From contig CAKKNE010000001.1 of NCBI GenBank assembly GCA_918797485.1, positions 5,518,001 to 5,582,000 of the forward strand: a DNA stretch of 64,000 nucleotides. Direction: 5' to 3'. The stretch comes from Pelagomonas calceolata (lineage: Eukaryota). Below are positions 2,881 to 33,055 of the stretch, in pieces (the first letter of the stretch is position 1; each line of letters opens with the position of its first letter). A program made the translations under genes and the position numbers. The notes beneath the pieces are model-generated. The model saw nothing but the letters and a program-made list of their open reading frames with translations, made no database searches and was not told the DNA's origin.

Positions 2881-3570
2881 TGGATCCTAAAACAACGGGT
2901 TCCTTACACCAGCGATTGACGACGCCATCTACCGTCCAAATGGTACATCATATCAACTCCAGCCCAGTTTTCATCCACAATCGACGGAACCGCGGCCGAC
3001 GGCCCGCGCCCGGAGGGCGGGAGAAGAGTTCTACTAGACAACTCCCGAGTTTATGTTCGTTTTTATCCGTTTGTTGGTGGTAGAGTCCATACAGACCGCC
3101 TGAACACGTACTCATCTATTTTAGATGCTCCGTTAGAGCCGCCGGAATCGACGATTCGGCAGCCTCACGTTTGTACAAAGATGATCCACAAACCTGAACC
3201 CGCGACTATCAGCGACGCCACTATCCAGATGGACCATAACGCCGTTGTTCTATTCACGATCGACCGACTTGCCCGTTCTCCGCGGACGACGGTACGTACG
3301 CGGGGCACCGGAAAGGCCCCAGACCGGTGAGTTATAAAATAAATTTGCGTTTCAGGCGCTTCGGTTACGGGACGGGCCAGATAACCGGCCTGACTGCCTA
3401 CTACATTGCTCCGAGACCCCAAGATGCTCGGCGCGGGTCGACGGACTCGCGACCACAGGATCTTGTGAAATCGGGGCACCAGACCCGGACCTGCGACCAT
3501 CAGCCCGTGTACCTTCACCATGGACCATAACGCGATCATTTGTTTCATTATCGACGGACTTACGCGAGGT
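2881..3570. repeat. Degenerate repeat with ~290-bp period (3 units) in a long intergenic region
   Basis: Related blocks ATGGTACATCA..ATCGACGGAAC (~2940), ATGGACCATAACGCC..ATCGACCGACTT (~3229) and ATGGACCATAACGCG..ATCGACGGACTT (~3519). Confidence 0.55.
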
Positions 3571-4379: not shown

Positions 4380-7300
4380 ATGGCGAACCCGACGCCCGCC
4401 CAGCTCGAAGCAAGGCTGAAATACTTCGTGCCCAGACTCAACGCCAGCGTCGCGCGATTAGAAAAGCACGCGGCGGCGCTCGCGGCCGCGACGGTCCGGC
4501 CGCTGCCCAAAAAACGCTGGTTCGCCGCGTTACTAAGAGCGCGCGACGCCCTGGAATACCACGCGAACGGCGATCTAAGGGGTTTGGTTGTGGACGCGAG
4601 CCGCTTCCCCTACGCGCGGAAACGGTTGGTCGTGGCCCGCTACTACAAGGAGGGGAAAAGGTACAGCGGCGAGGCCGAGGACGACGCGAACGAGGCCCAG
4701 CGGAGGTTAGATGAGGTAGACAGCGAGCGGGGCGAACGCTTCGCATTGCAGCTCGACGCCATCGAACAAAGAAAGACGTCCTGCGCGGACGCTCTCAAAA
4801 GATCGACAACTGAAGCGCTGGAGATCTTGGGAAGGGACAGCGCTCTATCTCTAGAATACCCGCGCGAGGAATTGAGGCACGGCTCTACCAAACTGAAACG
4901 CGGCGACGACCTGACGGGCCCCGAGGAGTTTTCCCAACCTCCAGTCAAGCGAGGAAATTCCTCGACCGCCCCCGTCAAGCGAGGTCGCCTGCGGCGGAAC
5001 GTCGCCGCGAGCGACTCGAGTGACGACGAGGAGGGCATCGACGCCGTCAAACGAAAAACGGGCCACGACCCCGATCAATTAGCCAAGGGCTCGGAGGAGA
5101 TGTTCGCGGAGCATACCGAGGGCGAGGTTGTTAACGACGAGAGTAGTAAGGAAGTTGTGGACCTATCAAAGCTCGAGGAGAACGAGGACTGGGAGGCGCT
5201 CGTGAAGGCGGCGCGAAAGCAATTGAGTGATGACCCGATCAATTGCGGACGAGCGTTGGGACGGGCCCTGTCGAACTTAGAACGGGACGAGGAGGCGTTG
5301 GCGGCCTTCTCCAGTGCCTTCGAGGCGGCTCGAGATTATCCTGACGATATCGAGCGAGTGCACATCGACCGCGGCCGGCACTGGCTAGATCGAGCAATTG
5401 CGGAAGAAGACCAACTAAAACAGAAGCACCTGGCGAATGAAGCATTGGGCGACTTTGAAAGGGCCGCGACGCTCGGCGCGCTCCATATGAACGAAGGCGG
5501 CGAGTGGCCGGACGCGTTTGCAAGGGCTAGGTACAACGCGGGCTTGGCGTTCGAGCTGGCGGGGAACAAGGAGGATGCGGCGTGCTCATTTGAGACGGCA
5601 GCCCAGGGTTTCCTGCGATTGCTGGACGAAGAAAGGACCGACGCTGATCTGCTGAAGGAGATGCGGGGGCGGGCATTGGTCTACGCCGGCCTTTGTAGGA
5701 TGGAGAAGCATGCGAACGTAGCTGCGGTCCTGTATGAACGAGCGGTCCTATGTCTGAACGACGTCGCGGCGAAGTGCCCGGGCGTTTTATTGGATGCTCT
5801 ACGCGGTTGCGTTTTTGCGAGGAGGCAGTCGGGTGATACTGAGGGAGCGAAGGCCGCTTCCCGCAATTACGCGGCGGCGGGCGGCGACTTGGATGATATC
5901 GATGAAGAGAGCGATGACGATTCTGTGGTTGATTTGACCGAATTCGAGGTCAAGGCGGAAAGCTTGGAGAGTATTGACGACGACGATTTGTATAACGAGA
6001 TGTCGCAAGAAGAACCCCTGGAATGTTTGAGTGGTGGGTTTGCGCTGAAGGGCCCTTTACAATATGATGAGCGGGAGCCGGAGGCGCCGGGCGACGCGAT
6101 TCGGCGGCGCTTCGTGCACCTGGCCATCCCGACGGGCGTCTCGGTGGTGCGCGGCGACGGGCGGCCGGCGAAGCGGCGGCGCGGGGCTGGTCGTGGTGGT
6201 GGGGGCGGCCTCGGAGGCGCTCCTGCTGGCGGCGGTACAGGGGGCCCCGGCCGCGGTGCCGGGGGCGGCCGCGGCGGCATTGGCGGGGCTGGCGCCAAGC
6301 GGGCAGGCGGCACGGGCGGGCCCGGCGCCAAGCGGCTTCGAGGCGACAACTACGGCTTTGCGCAGCGGCGGCCGTCCGCGGCGCCGACGAAGGGGCGCCG
6401 CCGGCGGCCGGGCGCCGCGCCGCCGCGAAAACGCCCGGCCGCGGCGGCGCCGCGTACTGGCCGCGGTACTGGCGGTACCGGCGCCGGCCGCGGGCCGCCC
6501 GTGCCCGCGGCCCGCGCGGCGCCGCGGACGGACGCCGACGACGAGGCCGAGTTCGAGTTTAGGGAAAGTCCGCCGCCACCGCCGGCGCCGCCGCCCGCCG
6601 CGCCGTCGTCGTCGTCGGACGACGAATCGAGCAGCGACGACAAGCCACTAGAGGAGCTCCGGCCGCGCGCCGCGCCGCGCCGAGCGCCGCGCGCCGCGTC
6701 GCCCCGCGGCGTCGACACGATCGACACGCTCGCGGCCCAGCTGGGCCTCCTCTCCCATCAAGAGAGAACGGAAAACGGGACGCTGACGCTCGGCGGCGCC
6801 GACGCGCGGGCCGTGGCGACCGCGGCGCGGCGTTGTACATCAACGGCACTGGCGCTGCGCTTCTGCCGGGGCGGCGCGGCGCTCGCGGCGGCCGCGGCCA
6901 AGGCATCAAGATTAACGTCGCTGTCGCTCATGGGCTGCGGGCTCGCGCTCGACGAGCTGGCGCCGCTCGAGGGGCGGCTACCCCACCTGACGCGCGTGGA
7001 CCTGAGCGCGAACCTGCTGGGGCGGCGGTCCCCATCGGCGCAGGCGCGGAGCGCGGGCGCGCGCGCACTTGAAGATCTGGCCTTCCGCTGCGACGCCGTC
7101 GACATGGCGCAGGTGTGCGTTGAGCCCCAGAGCCGCGCCTATCCTTTTGATGGAGGCGACGCCGTCGCCGCGGCCCTGGCGCGGGGCCTCCGGAAGCGGA
7201 ACGCGCCGCCCTCGCGAATTATGATACAGGACAACGCATTCACGGCGGGCGCCTGGCGCGAGGTCCTGTCCGCGCTGGCGCTGCGGCCGCCGTCTGATAC

Positions 7301-7847
7301 CCTGGACGTGTCGCGGCCGGCCGTGCTCGGTTCCGCGTCCGAGGCGACGTGGGCGCGCGACCTCTCGGGCGCGGTCCGGAGCGCCTCCACCATTATACTG
7401 GACGACGCCGACGTGCTGGCGCTGCACGCCGGCCGGCCCGCCGCGCGCGGCGTGATCGAGATGCTCTCCGTCACGGGGCGGACGGCGGCGACGGAGCTCG
7501 CGACGGTGCTGGCTGGGCGCGTGGTCTCGGCCGAGATCGAGCGCGTCGCGCCGCACGCGATCCTCACGGAATTGGAGCGCTCCGACGTGTTGAAGCACCT
7601 GTCCGCGCGGGGCTGTCGCCTCGACGCGCGGCGCGTCGCGGCGCTGCTCTGCGCGCCGGCGCTCGAGTTGCTCGACGCGGCGGGCAACGACGCGGCTGGT
7701 GACGCTACGATCGACCTCGGCGCCTGCCTCAGGAACCCGCGCCTGCGGCGCGTCGACTTGTCGGGGAACGGCTTCGATGATGGACAGCGCGCACGGCTCG
7801 CGGCGGCGTTCGGCTGTGCCCCGGGCAGAGTTTTGTTATTGTCCTAA
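4380..7847 (+). CDS. TPR-like + low-complexity linker + LRR protein (Tonsoku-like architecture)
   Basis: 1155-aa ORF with helical TPR-like segments (ARARYNAGLAFELAG), a Gly/Pro-rich middle, and C-terminal LRRs (LTSLSLMGCGL, LTRVDLSANLL, LRRVDLSGNGF). Orthology uncertain. Confidence 0.6.
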   Translation: MANPTPAQLEARLKYFVPRLNASVARLEKHAAALAAATVRPLPKKRWFAALLRARDALEYHANGDLRGLVVDASRFPYARKRLVVARYYKEGKRYSGEAEDDANEAQRRLDEVDSERGERFALQLDAIEQRKTSCADALKRSTTEALEILGRDSALSLEYPREELRHGSTKLKRGDDLTGPEEFSQPPVKRGNSSTAPVKRGRLRRNVAASDSSDDEEGIDAVKRKTGHDPDQLAKGSEEMFAEHTEGEVVNDESSKEVVDLSKLEENEDWEALVKAARKQLSDDPINCGRALGRALSNLERDEEALAAFSSAFEAARDYPDDIERVHIDRGRHWLDRAIAEEDQLKQKHLANEALGDFERAATLGALHMNEGGEWPDAFARARYNAGLAFELAGNKEDAACSFETAAQGFLRLLDEERTDADLLKEMRGRALVYAGLCRMEKHANVAAVLYERAVLCLNDVAAKCPGVLLDALRGCVFARRQSGDTEGAKAASRNYAAAGGDLDDIDEESDDDSVVDLTEFEVKAESLESIDDDDLYNEMSQEEPLECLSGGFALKGPLQYDEREPEAPGDAIRRRFVHLAIPTGVSVVRGDGRPAKRRRGAGRGGGGGLGGAPAGGGTGGPGRGAGGGRGGIGGAGAKRAGGTGGPGAKRLRGDNYGFAQRRPSAAPTKGRRRRPGAAPPRKRPAAAAPRTGRGTGGTGAGRGPPVPAARAAPRTDADDEAEFEFRESPPPPPAPPPAAPSSSSDDESSSDDKPLEELRPRAAPRRAPRAASPRGVDTIDTLAAQLGLLSHQERTENGTLTLGGADARAVATAARRCTSTALALRFCRGGAALAAAAAKASRLTSLSLMGCGLALDELAPLEGRLPHLTRVDLSANLLGRRSPSAQARSAGARALEDLAFRCDAVDMAQVCVEPQSRAYPFDGGDAVAAALARGLRKRNAPPSRIMIQDNAFTAGAWREVLSALALRPPSDTLDVSRPAVLGSASEATWARDLSGAVRSASTIILDDADVLALHAGRPAARGVIEMLSVTGRTAATELATVLAGRVVSAEIERVAPHAILTELERSDVLKHLSARGCRLDARRVAALLCAPALELLDAAGNDAAGDATIDLGACLRNPRLRRVDLSGNGFDDGQRARLAAAFGCAPGRVLLLS

Positions 7848-7850
7848 TTA

Positions 7851-8945
7851 CTAGCTACTCGGTAAGTCCTCCAAGAAGCCCTCGAGCGCCCCGACCAGCA
7901 TGTCCTGCCGCGGCGTGGACATCTCCATGGAATTGTGCCCCTGGGCCATGCCGCGGGCGAGGGCACCTAGCTTCGCGTCGGCGGCGCATTTTACCGGGTG
8001 GTAGAGTTTCTTGCCTGCCACAAGCTTGCCGCCAAGCGTCGCGGCAAAGTCGAGAGTATACTCGGTGTCCTTCGGCCGTCGGCGCCAGCCCTTCTCGTTC
8101 GCCATCGACGCGGGCACGCGCTCGCCTGTGTAGAAATCAAATGGTCACAGCGCGTCTCCGCCACGGCTGAATCATGGCCTCCATGCCATCGACGGATTTC
8201 CACACAGGCGCTCGCCACCGAAGCCTAGCGTTCCGATGGCCGATTCTGGCAAATCGGCCCACTTGCAATCCGAGTCCCCGAGGGAATAGCAGAATTGTGC
8301 AGTCAGAGCCTCGTGGTAGCCCTCGGCCGCGTTCGCGTCGAAGGCCTCTGCCAGCCTCTTCGCGAATCGCCGTGTCATTCGCAATACGGACCAGGCCGTG
8401 CGTGTCACAAGCCCGCTCGTGCACTTTTTGGAGCCGATGCGACATTTCAGGCGCCGTTGTTTCACCATTCCGGGAGATGGGTTCCACGTTCCGTTGACAA
8501 TTGAGAAGCGGGCCACTAGGTCTGCCCCGGGCGGTGCCGACGCAAAGAGGTCGCGCCAGCGGCCCGTGAAGAACACATCTTCCTCAATGTGCCAGGCGGC
8601 CACATATTTGCTATCCGCCAGCCACCGGACGAAGGCCGGCTTGGACACGCCAGACCGCTGGCCGGCAAACGACCGCCACGGACTGGTATGATAGCCGAAA
8701 TACGTGAAGTTTTGCTGCTGCACGACGCCGTAGGTCTGCGTCGCGCTCGCGACCCAGGATTCGTTCGAGAGCGCGTAGACGGGACGGCCGCTCAAACGGC
8801 CGCCGCCGCTGGAGTCGACGATCGCTTCGAGGCGTTGGCGCACGCATTGCCGCTCGGCTTCTGTGCGGTTCTTCGGCCCGACGGGCACCACGACAGCCTC
8901 TCGCTGGCCGCGGACCGATGCGGCGGCGAGCAGGAGGATATACAT
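7851..8945 (-). CDS. Secreted, possibly glycosyltransferase-like protein; two exons (8945-8216, 8125-7851)
   Basis: Signal peptide and a WHIEEDVFFTGRW motif. Removing the 90-nt GC-AG intron 8126-8215 joins LGFGGER to VPASMANEKG in frame. Confidence 0.6.
8126..8207 (-). mobile_element. Introner-like element forming intron 8126-8215
   Basis: Ends CTGTGTAGAAAT...ATTTCCACACAG, flanked by a perfect 8-bp duplication GCGCTCGC (8118-8125, 8208-8215). Confidence 0.85.
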
Positions 8946-8947
8946 GC

Positions 8948-9142
8948 TCAGAGGCCGAGGAAGTACTGCGCTAACGGGTAGAGGACGAAGACGACCGCGA
9001 CGATGGCGAAGAGGATGCCGTGGACGTCGATGTTCGGGAGTTTTGACGGCTGATAGCGAGCCGGTCGCTCTCTTTTCGCGTCACTGAGCCGGTCTCCATA
9101 ATTGCCCTTTTCAATACCAACAGGATTCTTGCCTCGGCCCAT
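8948..9142 (-). CDS. Small 64-aa protein with a C-terminal transmembrane helix
   Basis: ATG-initiated ORF with a basic N-terminus and hydrophobic tail ILFAIVAVVFVLYPLAQYFLGL. Motif copy ~160 bp upstream. Confidence 0.55.
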   Translation of the reverse strand: MGRGKNPVGIEKGNYGDRLSDAKRERPARYQPSKLPNIDVHGILFAIVAVVFVLYPLAQYFLGL

Positions 9143-9301
9143 TTGTGAGTCGGGCCAGCTGGTTAGGACTTGTCAGGCACTTGCTGAGGTCAAGAATTAC
9201 GCTTGACCGCTTTAGAAACGAAAGGACGACGCCAGAGGACAGTCGAGCACGCGTGTATCTCGCGTCGTCAGGAGCGGGGCGTCTCTGCGAATAAGCACTA
9301 A

Positions 9302-14465: not shown

Positions 14466-14981
14466 TTTATGCCAGGCACATTTTTTTGGCTGTGACGCGC
14501 TAAAGACGGGAGTTACCGTGCGTCGGCGGCGTCCAACCTCACTCACTTCACTCAACGCGCCCTCACAACTATCTCTGTCGCGCCGACCTTTTTGCGTATG
14601 GCTATGTTACAGCTATGTATCCTGGGAAATTTCAAGAGAGAGAGAGTTAAGCGGTCACGAACGCTAGACTGACTCGTGCGCCGGCGAAGCTGCGTACACG
14701 GAGAAACGCTCAAAAGGGCAAACCCCTAAGAGCGCCACCCGGACACACCTTCCGCCGCGCGGGGGGGCGCGGAAATTTCAGCGACGGCGGCGCGGGGAGG
14801 ACCGATGAACTCAGGCGGCATCCGGTGTTCTTCGATCGTTGCGTGGGGGACCCCACTCTTGCTTGGGCGTGGGGCGGCCGGCTGCACGTGTGCCGAGCTT
14901 ATTTTGCGACACAGTATTTGTCCCGCCCACAGCGTGCGTATCTCTGGTCGCAATCCGAGCGAGAGAAAAAGCCAATAATCG

Positions 14982-31023: not shown

Positions 31024-33055
31024 ATGAACAAGCTCCTCTGGGCGCTCTTCGCCGCCGCGGCGGCCTTCGCCCCGGCCCCGGCGCCGCGCGCCGCGCGGCC
31101 CGTGCTCAAGGCGGTCAACAACGGCCGCGGCGTCGCGCAGAAGCTGCGGAGGTCAGGCGTCCGCCTTCAAGCGAAGGCAGAACCCCCGCGCGCCGCCGTC
31201 GTCGCGCAGGCCGCGGCGGCCGCCGTCGAGGACGCCGAACCGACGTGGTTCGACACGTACACCAAGGTCTCCGGCGCCTTGACCAACTTATTTCCGGTCT
31301 GGACGGTCGTCTTCACGTTGTGGGCCCTCAAGGACCCGTCGGCCTTCGCCTGGCTGACCACTAAATACTTCACGGCGGGCCTAGCGATTCTCATGCTGAG
31401 TATGGGTATTACGCTGGCCCCGAAGGACTTCCAAAGAGTGGCGACGCGGCCCAATGCGGTGTTATTGAACTTCGCGCTGTGCTACGGTACCGCGGCCAGC
31501 GTCCTATATTCATAAAGGGGGTGTAGCTCAGTGGCAGAGCGTCCGCTTTGCATGCGGAAAGCCCAGGGTTCAAACCCCTGCTCCTCCACACACACAAAAA
31601 CAACTCCGTGGCGCAATGGACAGCGTATCAGACTTCGAATCTGGGGGTTGCGGGTTCGAGTCCCGTCGGAGTTGTTTGCGTTCGCTCGACGGCGCGACGC
31701 CGCCGCCGCGACGCACCACGATCTTTCGTGGCGCGCCTGCTCGACGGCGTCACGCTGTCGCCGCGACGCACCACACCACACAAAATCTGGACGGACTGGA
31801 AATCTGAAGGCTCCGGGTTCGACTCCCGGGTCGGTCTACCGCGGAATTGAACTCAAAGCGAGATAGTGTGGCCGAGTGGTTAAGGCGGTAGACTTGAAAT
31901 CTACTCCCGCAAGGGTCGCAGGATCGATTCCTACAAAATCGATGCGCGTTCGAACCCTGTCACTATCGCGCACGTTGATGATGTGGCCGAGTGGTCTAAG
32001 CTCCTGGGAGCGACCAGAGGCGCTGGTTTTAGGCACCAGTCTTCGGGCGTGGGTTCGAACCCCACCATCATCACTTGAGTTCCATGCCGCACGTTCGTAT
32101 CCGTGGCCGAGTTGGTCTAAGGCGTTGGATTTAAGCCCCAATCTCTCCGGAGGCGTGGGTTCGAACCCCACCGGATGCACACATTTGACCGATGACGGTT
32201 TCGCCAATCAGATGCCAGTCCTGAGAGTTAATCGTGTGTCGGACACGAGGCTGACGGTACACTCTCGCAGGCATGATGCCGGCGCTCGGCCTGACCCTGG
32301 GCAAGATGTTCGCGCTAGATCCGGCTTTAGTGGCAGGGATGGTCCTCGTCGGCTCGATCAACGGCGGCCAGGCGTCGAATCTCTGCACGTTCATTGCGAA
32401 CGGGAACGTGGCCCTCTCGGTGCTCATGACGACGGCAACCACCATTGGAGCTATCTTCATGACTCCCCTATTGTGCAAGACCTTTCTGGGGACGGTCGTG
32501 CCCGTCGACGCCGCGGGCATTGTCGTCTCTACTCTACAGGTCGTCCTCGCGCCCATCTTAGTAGGCATGACGATGAACGCCAAGTTCCCGAAAGTCGTGA
32601 AGAAGATCACTCCTGTGACACCCGTCATAGGCATGGTCTCTACCTGTCTGCTGGTGGCCGCGGCTGTCGGGCAGGTCGCCGAGCCGATCCTGGCGGCTGG
32701 CCTCAACCTGCAATTACCGGTAATGCTCCTCCACTTGGTCGGCGGCATCGTCGGCTACTGGGGCGCTCGGGCTCTCGGCTTCGGCGAGACGTCGTCGAGA
32801 ACGATGGCCATCGAGACCTCGATGAAGAGCTCGGCCTTCGGCTTTTTACTAGCGAAGCTCCACTTCGGCGCCTTCGCCGCCCGCGTGCCTTCCGCGGTGT
32901 CCGTGGTCTGGATGGCGCTGACGGGCTCGTCGATGGCCGTCGCGTGGCGCTTCATGCCGGTCAAGCCGGTCAAGTTTGATAGAAAAGTCAAGGAGCGCTT
33001 CGAGTCCGTGGATCTCCTCACGCGGGCGAAGAAGCTCTTCGGCAAGGAGAAGTAG
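31024..33055 (+). CDS. BASS2: Plastid bile acid:sodium symporter family transporter (BASS1/2-like); exons 31024-31486 and 32271-33055
   Basis: AAAFAP presequence; LTNLFPVW, MLSMGITL, GGQASNLCTFIANGNVALSVLMT and RTMAIE. GT-AG intron 31487-32270 joins ALCYG|MMPALG in frame. Confidence 0.88.
31517..31588 (+). tRNA. trnA-UGC: tRNA-Ala(UGC), inside the BASS2 intron
   Basis: GGGGGTGTAGCTCAGTGG...CCGCTTTGCATGCGG...GGTTCAAACCC...CTCCTCCA with the G3:U70 identity pair. Confidence 0.95.
31602..31674 (+). tRNA. trnR-UCG: tRNA-Arg(UCG), inside the BASS2 intron
   Basis: AACTCCG/CGGAGTT acceptor stem, TCAGA-CT TCG AA-TCTGG anticodon arm, GCGGG-TTCGAGT-CCCGT T arm. Confidence 0.95.
31684..31774. repeat. 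Two imperfect 36-bp direct repeats within the tRNA cluster
   Basis: GCTCGACGGCG..ACGC...CGCCGCGACGCACCAC at 31684-31719 and 31739-31774. Confidence 0.8.
31791..31837 (+). pseudogene. Orphan 3' portion of a tRNA (anticodon-like arm, T arm, acceptor 3' strand) with no adjacent 5' half
   Basis: CGGA-CTGGAAA-TCTG, AAGGCT, CCGGG-TTCGACT-CCCGG, GTCGGTC. No D arm or matching acceptor 5' strand seen. Confidence 0.6.
31862..31968 (+). tRNA. trnS-UGA: tRNA-Ser(UGA) with a 26-nt non-canonical intron (31923-31948) at T-arm position 53/54
   Basis: GATAGTG/CACTATC acceptor, GTAGA-CT TGA AA-TCTAC, variable arm CCC-GCAA-GGG. Removing the insert restores GCAGG-TTCGAAC-CCTGT. Confidence 0.92.
31977..32073 (+). 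tRNA. trnL-UAG: tRNA-Leu(UAG) with a 19-nt non-canonical intron (31999-32017) in the D loop (20/21 region)
   Basis: GATGATG/CATCATC acceptor, CTGGT-TT TAG GC-ACCAG. Removing the insert restores GCCGAGTGGTCTAAGGC. Confidence 0.92.
32097..32179 (+). tRNA. trnL-UAA: tRNA-Leu(UAA), inside the BASS2 intron
   Basis: GTATCCG/CGGATGC acceptor, GCCGAGTTGGTCTAAGGC D arm, TT TAA GC loop (one A-C mismatch in the stem), long variable arm, GTGGG-TTCGAAC-CCCAC. Confidence 0.9.

Follow-up and report, generated by a model that had tools for sequence, protein, structure and literature searches.

The subject of this analysis is a row of transfer RNA (tRNA) genes in the single intron of a transporter gene of the pelagophyte alga Pelagomonas calceolata, located in a 64,000-nucleotide (nt) stretch of contig CAKKNE010000001.1 (positions 5,518,001 to 5,582,000, forward strand) that is referred to as the window (Table 1). 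The host gene encodes a member of the SBF/BASS family, hereafter BASS, and its two coding exons join into a frame of 415 amino acids. The second exon matches PF01758, the sodium/bile-acid symporter family, at 102.5 bits (cut-off 24.3, E 3e-29) and its product has solved bile-acid symporters as structural matches, while the N-terminus encoded by the first exon resembles a bipartite plastid-targeting peptide. The closest named proteins are from Aureococcus anophagefferens (77-78% identity) and Aureoumbra (67%). A preliminary description of the locus had placed one 784-nt GT-AG intron in this gene, and its ends (GT at 31487, AG at 32269-32270) agree both with the joined frame and with RNA. In three runs of poly(A) reads from a single sample (X21-X23), 132, 100 and 77 reads skip exactly the 784 nt, and the 31486/32271 junction on which that description hinged is thus present in 309 reads. 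Reads from within the intron are almost exclusively of the sense strand. Four reads of one run join a cryptic GT within the Leu-UAA gene (32102) to the start of exon 2 (32271).

Table 1. The BASS gene and the elements of its intron, in window positions.
Feature	Position	Strand	Basis or remark
Coding exon 1, SBF/BASS-family transporter	31024..31486	+	415-aa joined frame; junction reads
Spliceosomal GT-AG intron with tRNA cassette, 784 nt	31487..32270	+	309 junction reads
Donor and GCGTCC-type motif common to tRNA-bearing introns; predicted pairing with branch region	31487..31504	+	Stem probability 1.0
tRNA-Ala(UGC)	31517..31588	+	ARAGORN, Rfam; identical in ortholog L005
tRNA-Arg(UCG)	31602..31674	+	ARAGORN, Rfam, comparison with ortholog L005
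GC-rich hairpin spacer from a 36-nt direct repeat	31678..31771	+	Not kept between paralogs
Conserved tRNA 3' half (A38 at 31802 to U73 at 31837) with leader	31793..31837	+	8 variants, 15 loci
Trailer; predicted pairing with 32074-32090, enclosing Ser and Leu-UAG	31841..31857	+	Duplex energies
tRNA-Ser(UGA); predicted 26-nt T-arm intron 31923-31948 (position 53/54), motif like a bulge-helix-bulge (BHB)	31862..31968	+	Rfam
tRNA-Leu(UAG); predicted 19-nt D-loop intron 31999-32017, BHB-like motif	31977..32073	+	Rfam
tRNA-Leu(UAA), intronless	32097..32179	+	ARAGORN, Rfam
Decayed tRNA-Trp(CCA)	32187..32245	+	Intact Trp at equivalent place in paralogs
Predicted branch site, A at 32254	32248..32260	+	Position from consensus; A bulged from donor-region stem
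Coding exon 2 of the transporter, up to the stop codon	32271..33055	+	Pfam match, junction reads, structural relatives

The Rfam tRNA family RF00005 has five matches in the entire window, every one of them in the BASS intron and on the + strand, which agrees with the preliminary count of five intact tRNAs and a half in the orientation of the host. The spacers of 13, 8 and 23 nt and the U that begins each of the five intact anticodons are likewise as described. The spacers are indeed free of runs of four T (T4), but one T4 is internal to the anticodon arm of Leu-UAG (32027-32030), beyond which the next run of four or more T lies in exon 2 at 32843. Part of these genes escapes standard tRNA finders: ARAGORN detects three of the five and passes over the two with odd introns. 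The tRNA-Trp relic is absent from the preliminary description. A reading of 32187-32253 as a small nucleolar RNA (snoRNA) was rejected, as no Rfam family reaches threshold there and paralogs identify the relic as Trp; nor does any snoRNA family reach the curated Rfam threshold elsewhere in the window or in the half-bearing loci described below. In the DNA run X1 single-copy exons have a summed contig depth of about 173 and Arg-UCG (31602-31674) one of about 6400-9200, which hints at many copies of Arg and is not a copy number.

The cassette recurs in other genes. A scan of metagenome contigs with the half as query returned 14 loci (L001-L014) that represent seven unrelated host genes: the BASS ortholog (L005), an ABC-F/eEF3-like ATPase (L001), a cyclophilin (L004, L006, L007, L011 and L012), a cold-shock/CCCH protein (L002, L003, L009 and L014), a TPR-like protein (L010, weak match), a LETM1-like protein (L013, weak match) and a small lysine-rich frame with no Pfam match (L008). 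L012 is a probable chimeric assembly of BASS exon 1 with cyclophilin exons and is not counted as a host; the two are joined through the shared tRNA cassette, and such cassettes probably produce chimeric assemblies. The cyclophilin exons cover profile positions 1-33, 36-59 and 70-105, each of the three being followed by a tRNA block, and the ABC-F exons cover consecutive profile positions on either side of tRNA blocks. Throughout the predicted introns of the seven genes the order Ala-Arg-half-Ser-Leu-Leu-Trp is kept, with losses, and neighbouring introns outside the selection of the scan contain Trp, Ala, Ala-Arg, Arg-CCU or Arg-Trp-Trp. The 86 RF00005 matches in the 14 loci, which were selected for the half and include redundant ones, are without exception on the host-sense strand, and none falls outside a predicted intron, the first intron of L010 possibly lying in the 5' leader. 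The 64 kb plus 41 kb of sequence covered contained no tRNA outside such introns. The suggestion that the purpose of the cassette lies in U34 anticodons reading rare codons did not hold, as the ancestral cassette has Trp-CCA and sister introns have Arg-CCU. It is also unsupported because U34 tRNAs can read G-ending codons by wobble as well, and the G-ending codons GCG, TCG and CGG are frequent.

Thirteen complete introns, or 11 after merging of orthologs, can be compared with each other. Their donors are predicted except in BASS and were fixed by homology, as an open-frame test alone is insufficient in GC-rich DNA. The tRNA-bearing introns range from 122 to 811 nt, and in all 13 the first tRNA starts 24-36 nt past the donor, with a GC-rich exon occupying the place of any upstream promoter. 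A GCGTCC-type motif lies 10-14 nt past the donor in 13/13 introns and keeps a looser distance to the tRNA (8-20 nt); across the window it is not enriched, with 11 matches against 8.3 in 50 shuffles. In 12 of the 13 introns the stretch from the last intact tRNA to the acceptor is free of T4. One intron with two Arg-CCU genes (L009:1080-1328) is precisely absent from the close relative L014, both being cold-shock-domain genes, and the Aureococcus orthologs (contigs of 9-13 kb) are annotated as one open reading frame that spans the BASS intron site; tRNA-bearing introns therefore come and go. Pelagophyte genomes are reported to contain 0.19-0.45 introns per gene (PMC9481584; 10.1101/2024.10.30.620910), and the intronic position of the tRNAs is not chance because introns are this rare. 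The first intron of the cold-shock gene in L009 (185-995) has an apparent GC donor; GC-AG introns are put at about 14% in pelagophytes (10.1101/2024.10.30.620910). In the BASS intron (31487-31497/32249-32260) and in both ABC-F introns of L001, the predicted branch A forms a bulge in a stem that involves the 5' splice-site region.

The cassette is real and under selection. Between the window and its ortholog L005, 38 of 122 fourfold sites have changed, compared with none of 386 positions in the five tRNA bodies, one of 35 in the half and none of 24 in those parts of the Trp relic that pair, while the hairpin spacer (12/107) and the trailer (7/23) are more variable. Four short spacers, with 1/50 changed, are conserved like the tRNA bodies, and gene conversion may therefore contribute. 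The D-loop intron of Leu-UAG has a 4-bp central helix with 3-nt bulges in 10/10 variants and its inner helix covaries; the T-arm intron of Ser behaves likewise, with a 4-bp central helix and 3-nt bulges in 9/9 variants. Both are BHB-like, with an outer side that is a loop and not a strict helix, and by the BHB rule cuts after the second base of each bulge would restore standard Ser and Leu-UAG tRNAs. Compensatory changes in these helices and in the T-stem of the half indicate that selection acts on RNA structure. Four loci (L004, L008, L011 and L012) contain a second Leu-UAA isodecoder with a D-loop intron that apparently lies one base upstream of the Leu-UAG intron site.

The half is followed by a tRNA-Trp or a Trp relic at a distance of 135-362 nt in all 11 testable cases (ten of the 14 loci and the window). 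Its 3' acceptor strand is complementary to the 5' strand of Trp and its leader to the Trp anticodon arm (-19 to -25 kcal/mol), a layout which is that of a type II permuted tRNA, with the 3' half upstream of the complementary 5' half. Folding half and Trp jointly gives a full cloverleaf as the best fold in 5/11 cases, the window not among them, and in all seven loci with an intact Trp the joint fold gains 12-18 kcal/mol over the separate ones. When the whole window intron is folded, the half-Trp pairs of the anticodon arm have probabilities of 0.96-1.0 and the acceptor pairs only about 0.2. Among the eight variants of the half, pair 49:65 of the T-stem is C-G, G-C or A-U, and A38 and U73 are invariant. 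The window relic has lost its D-arm and T-arm but retains the 5' acceptor strand and the anticodon arm that pair with the half; U8 and U33 are also gone from the Trp 5' part of the window and L005, and in L010 Trp survives as a 5' part only. The half provides U39 where Trp has an A31xC39 mismatch. A role as a required repair of this mismatch was rejected, since other introns and four giant-virus contigs contain stand-alone Trp genes that share it. The half was also rejected as a tRNA with a GGA anticodon; its leader is not an anticodon loop because length and letters vary between loci. The duplex predicted for the trailer has a mean energy of -18.4 kcal/mol for cognate and -13.8 kcal/mol for non-cognate pairs, the cognate being best in its row in only 3/11.

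The polycistronic precursor put forward in the preliminary description is matched by sense poly(A) reads that join tRNAs both at this locus and in paralogs, and joined precursors therefore exist. In the bins that consist mostly of the window's own hairpin spacer the depth is 15-39, a part of which comes from paralogs, and exon 1 has 74-134 at its end, so that a sizeable minority of the poly(A) RNA retains the intron. At 31597 the window's own letter of the Ala-Arg spacer is found in 17/90, 11/45 and 9/35 reads of the three runs, and the remaining reads are from paralogs with other spacers. Joints of paralogs run from Arg to Ala across 3 letters (121, 116 and 94 reads), from Arg to Leu-UAG (29, 7 and 8), from Arg to the half (16, 7 and 8, a joint present in DNA run X1 too) and from Ser to Leu-UAA (9, 4 and 4). 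Loose read ends beside Ala and Arg resemble additional donors and acceptors. Of the three nested processing levels proposed earlier, the splice is seen directly and the BHB-like introns of the tRNAs covary, whereas the steps of RNase P and RNase Z are presumed. No joint that would mark removal of the Ser or Leu-UAG introns occurs in the poly(A) reads, where mature tRNA is not expected.

Nuclear tRNAs are taught as single units of RNA polymerase III (Pol III). It is proposed here that the tRNAs of the cassette are probably released from introns of host genes made by RNA polymerase II (Pol II), like intronic snoRNAs, and this scheme appears to be repeated across many introns of the algal lineage. 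Pol II would transcribe the host gene and the intron would fold into nested domains; during or after splicing, the tRNA splicing endonuclease would take out the inner introns of Ser and Leu-UAG, and RNase P together with RNase Z would liberate each tRNA from the intron. The half and the Trp 5' part would fold as a clamp in the shape of a permuted tRNA that closes off the Ser-Leu-Leu block and could keep the cut pieces of the intron together until splicing finishes. The clamp, plus the donor-branch stem in some introns, would thereby guard the splice. In this scheme we infer the polymerase and all of the cleavage steps. Release from host introns is supported by the splice, the near-exclusive sense reads, the sense orientation of 86/86 matches, the fixed distance from the donor and the missing T4 in 12/13 introns. 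Pol II-made tRNA has a precedent in the tRNA-Sec of Trypanosoma brucei (PMC2943599), and the BASS locus shares with that case the sense embedding in a Pol II transcript.

Several points weigh against release from host introns. A and B boxes, which no tRNA can do without, are present in all of the tRNAs, and unspliced pre-mRNA explains the joined poly(A) reads equally well. A T5 between two Arg-CCU genes of one intron and a T4 after Leu-UAG in another could be Pol III stops. The donor-branch stem is clearly better than in shuffled sequences in only 4/13 introns, so that it was rejected as a general feature. The cassette may have spread with its own splice sites, in which case the sense bias would not count as independent evidence, and the loci were selected for the half, so tRNA genes outside introns were not sampled. 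RNA support covers the BASS junction in one sample, the other introns being predicted. The comparative data nevertheless lean, short of proof, to host-intron processing over Pol III.

The first alternative, possible but rather unlikely, is a Pol III unit nested in the host gene, which would start at internal boxes A and B near the first tRNA, give a joint precursor and end at a weak signal. The intron would then be a mere shelter, and the shared orientation would stem from how the cassette moved. Pol III is the eukaryotic default (PMC13578239) and makes the tRNAs with odd introns in Cyanidioschyzon merolae (PMC3978253); in the alga both kinds of box are intact, among them a B-box core that extends across the end of the Ser intron, and some T4 and T5 runs lie inside clusters. 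Several features count against it. The AT-rich stretch directly upstream of Ala (-12..-1), previously noted as TATA-like, was rejected as a promoter because it lies too near the tRNA and is not conserved as a TATA in L005 or the paralogs. No terminator stands past the last tRNA in 12/13 introns, the next T5 of the window is about 660 nt downstream in exon 2, and in some loci runs of T5-T6 come immediately before the first tRNA. The GCGTCC motif, moreover, follows the donor more closely than the tRNA.

The second alternative concerns the half only and fits either polymerase. It holds that the half and the Trp 5' half are a true circularly permuted tRNA-Trp (type II, junction 37/38) that is spliced into a circle, with three other tRNAs in the intervening sequence. 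This is an improbable reading, though it would account for the order of the halves in every testable locus, the cloverleaf and the gain in folding energy, the invariant A38, a 32:intron pair that is possible in 7/7 variants, the Trp 5' part kept alone in L010 and the U39 opposite the mismatch of Trp. For the function of the half a structural clamp is favoured over this reading, on what amounts to an even call, because no BHB occurs at the junction in any of seven variants (the central helix has 1-3 of 4 pairs, with no 4/4 register), and because of the long intervening sequence, the U73 of the half, the decay of Trp with pairing kept and the stand-alone Trp genes with the mismatch. The U73 stands in place of the A73 that is normal for Trp tRNAs, and in the window and L005 the pairing stays even though U8, U33 and the D-arm are gone from the 5' part. 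No back-splice joint is among the joints listed from the poly(A) reads of the window, where it would rarely be expected. Permuted tRNA genes are described in Cyanidioschyzon merolae, prasinophytes and Thermofilum with intervening sequences of 1-74 nt, as against 135-362 nt here (PMC3978253). As in those systems, a 3' half lies upstream of its matching 5' half and neighbouring tRNAs contain D-loop and T-arm introns with BHB-like motifs. Unlike them, the algal partner is usually a complete tRNA-Trp, whole tRNAs lie within the intervening sequence, and an upstream TATA-like element and downstream T-stretch are missing.

The weakest alternative, that the cassette is a selfish, introner-like mobile intron and its tRNAs little-used passengers kept alike by gene conversion, is highly unlikely: the same gene order and similar intron ends in unrelated hosts, the gain or loss of such introns in L009 and L014 and at the BASS site of Aureococcus, and short spacers conserved like tRNA bodies would fit it, but the T-stem of the half and the tRNA-intron helices have compensatory changes that reveal selection on RNA structure, no target-site duplications are visible by eye, no tRNA lies outside such introns in the sequence covered, and mobility may account for spread and not for uselessness. 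The introners of marine algae are comparable in that related introns occur at unrelated sites, with recent gain and loss and partly complementary ends (10.1101/2022.06.06.494994); they differ from the introns described here, which carry rows of tRNAs and measure 122-811 nt, and the main text of that survey does not mention tRNA. A wider reading, offered tentatively and held somewhat less probable than its converse, is that much of the nuclear tRNA set of this globally abundant lineage, or the whole of it, has been relocated to sense introns of host genes, with tRNAs coming from operon-like Pol II rows that spread as mobile introns and with the clamp, possibly a spliced circle with three tRNAs, organising the precursor.

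Stable sense RNAs released from an intron or a shared precursor are familiar from intronic snoRNA clusters and the tRNA-snoRNA dicistrons of plants; the algal cargo differs in being tRNA. In C. elegans the intronic share of tRNA genes is 44%, which equals the chance expectation, with 56% in sense, and the same study names release of tRNA from introns as possible but unstudied (Sagi et al. 2016, PMC4999229). The intronic tRNAs of Caenorhabditis resemble those of the alga in lying inside the introns of genes that encode proteins and in being conserved with their hosts, but are regarded as Pol III units and have mixed orientation, whereas those of the algal sample are all sense and form rows of several isotypes that keep a fixed distance from the donor and mostly lack terminators. 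In T. brucei, as is proposed for the alga, a tRNA is cut from a Pol II transcript (PMC2943599). There it is one special tRNA in a polycistron, established by experiment, while the algal cassettes hold ordinary tRNAs for at least five amino acids in cis-spliced introns. A 2026 review describes the tRNA genes of protists as nearly all dispersed singletons (PMC13578239), and the main text of both pelagophyte genome papers (PMC9481584; 10.1101/2024.10.30.620910) does not contain the word tRNA. None of the papers listed by a search on TFIIIC in pelagophytes carried that term. A literature search, with subscription journals mostly outside its coverage, found no description of a system of intronic tRNA cassettes. 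The system is a variant of intronic tRNA genes and, should a Pol II origin be shown, would represent a new way of producing tRNA in bulk.

The release of ordinary tRNAs from mRNA introns is a question that earlier authors raised and did not test (PMC4999229, PMC2943599), and it can be tested directly in a culturable alga that has many one-way cassettes. If the proposed mechanism is true, the supply of tRNA would depend on how chosen host genes are expressed and spliced, the question would arise of how RNase P and RNase Z spare the host mRNA, and the cassettes would amount to a naturally occurring version of the tRNA-spacer cassettes employed for genome editing. The pairing of the half with Trp is an RNA architecture for which no description was found in that search, and it may show how permuted tRNA genes originate.

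A donor-like sequence with the same GCGTCC motif occurs elsewhere in the window (14518-14560), with no tRNA after it. Prokaryotic and viral origins of the cassette were both rejected, the former with no matches and the latter because the half, Arg and Leu patterns have no matches in viral contigs, where only Trp is found, and alone. Four AT-rich giant-virus contigs (L015-L018) carry this stand-alone tRNA-Trp (at about 2964-3065) near an Hsp70 gene. It is near-identical to the algal intronic Trp, including the 31:39 mismatch, and was likely captured from a pelagophyte host.

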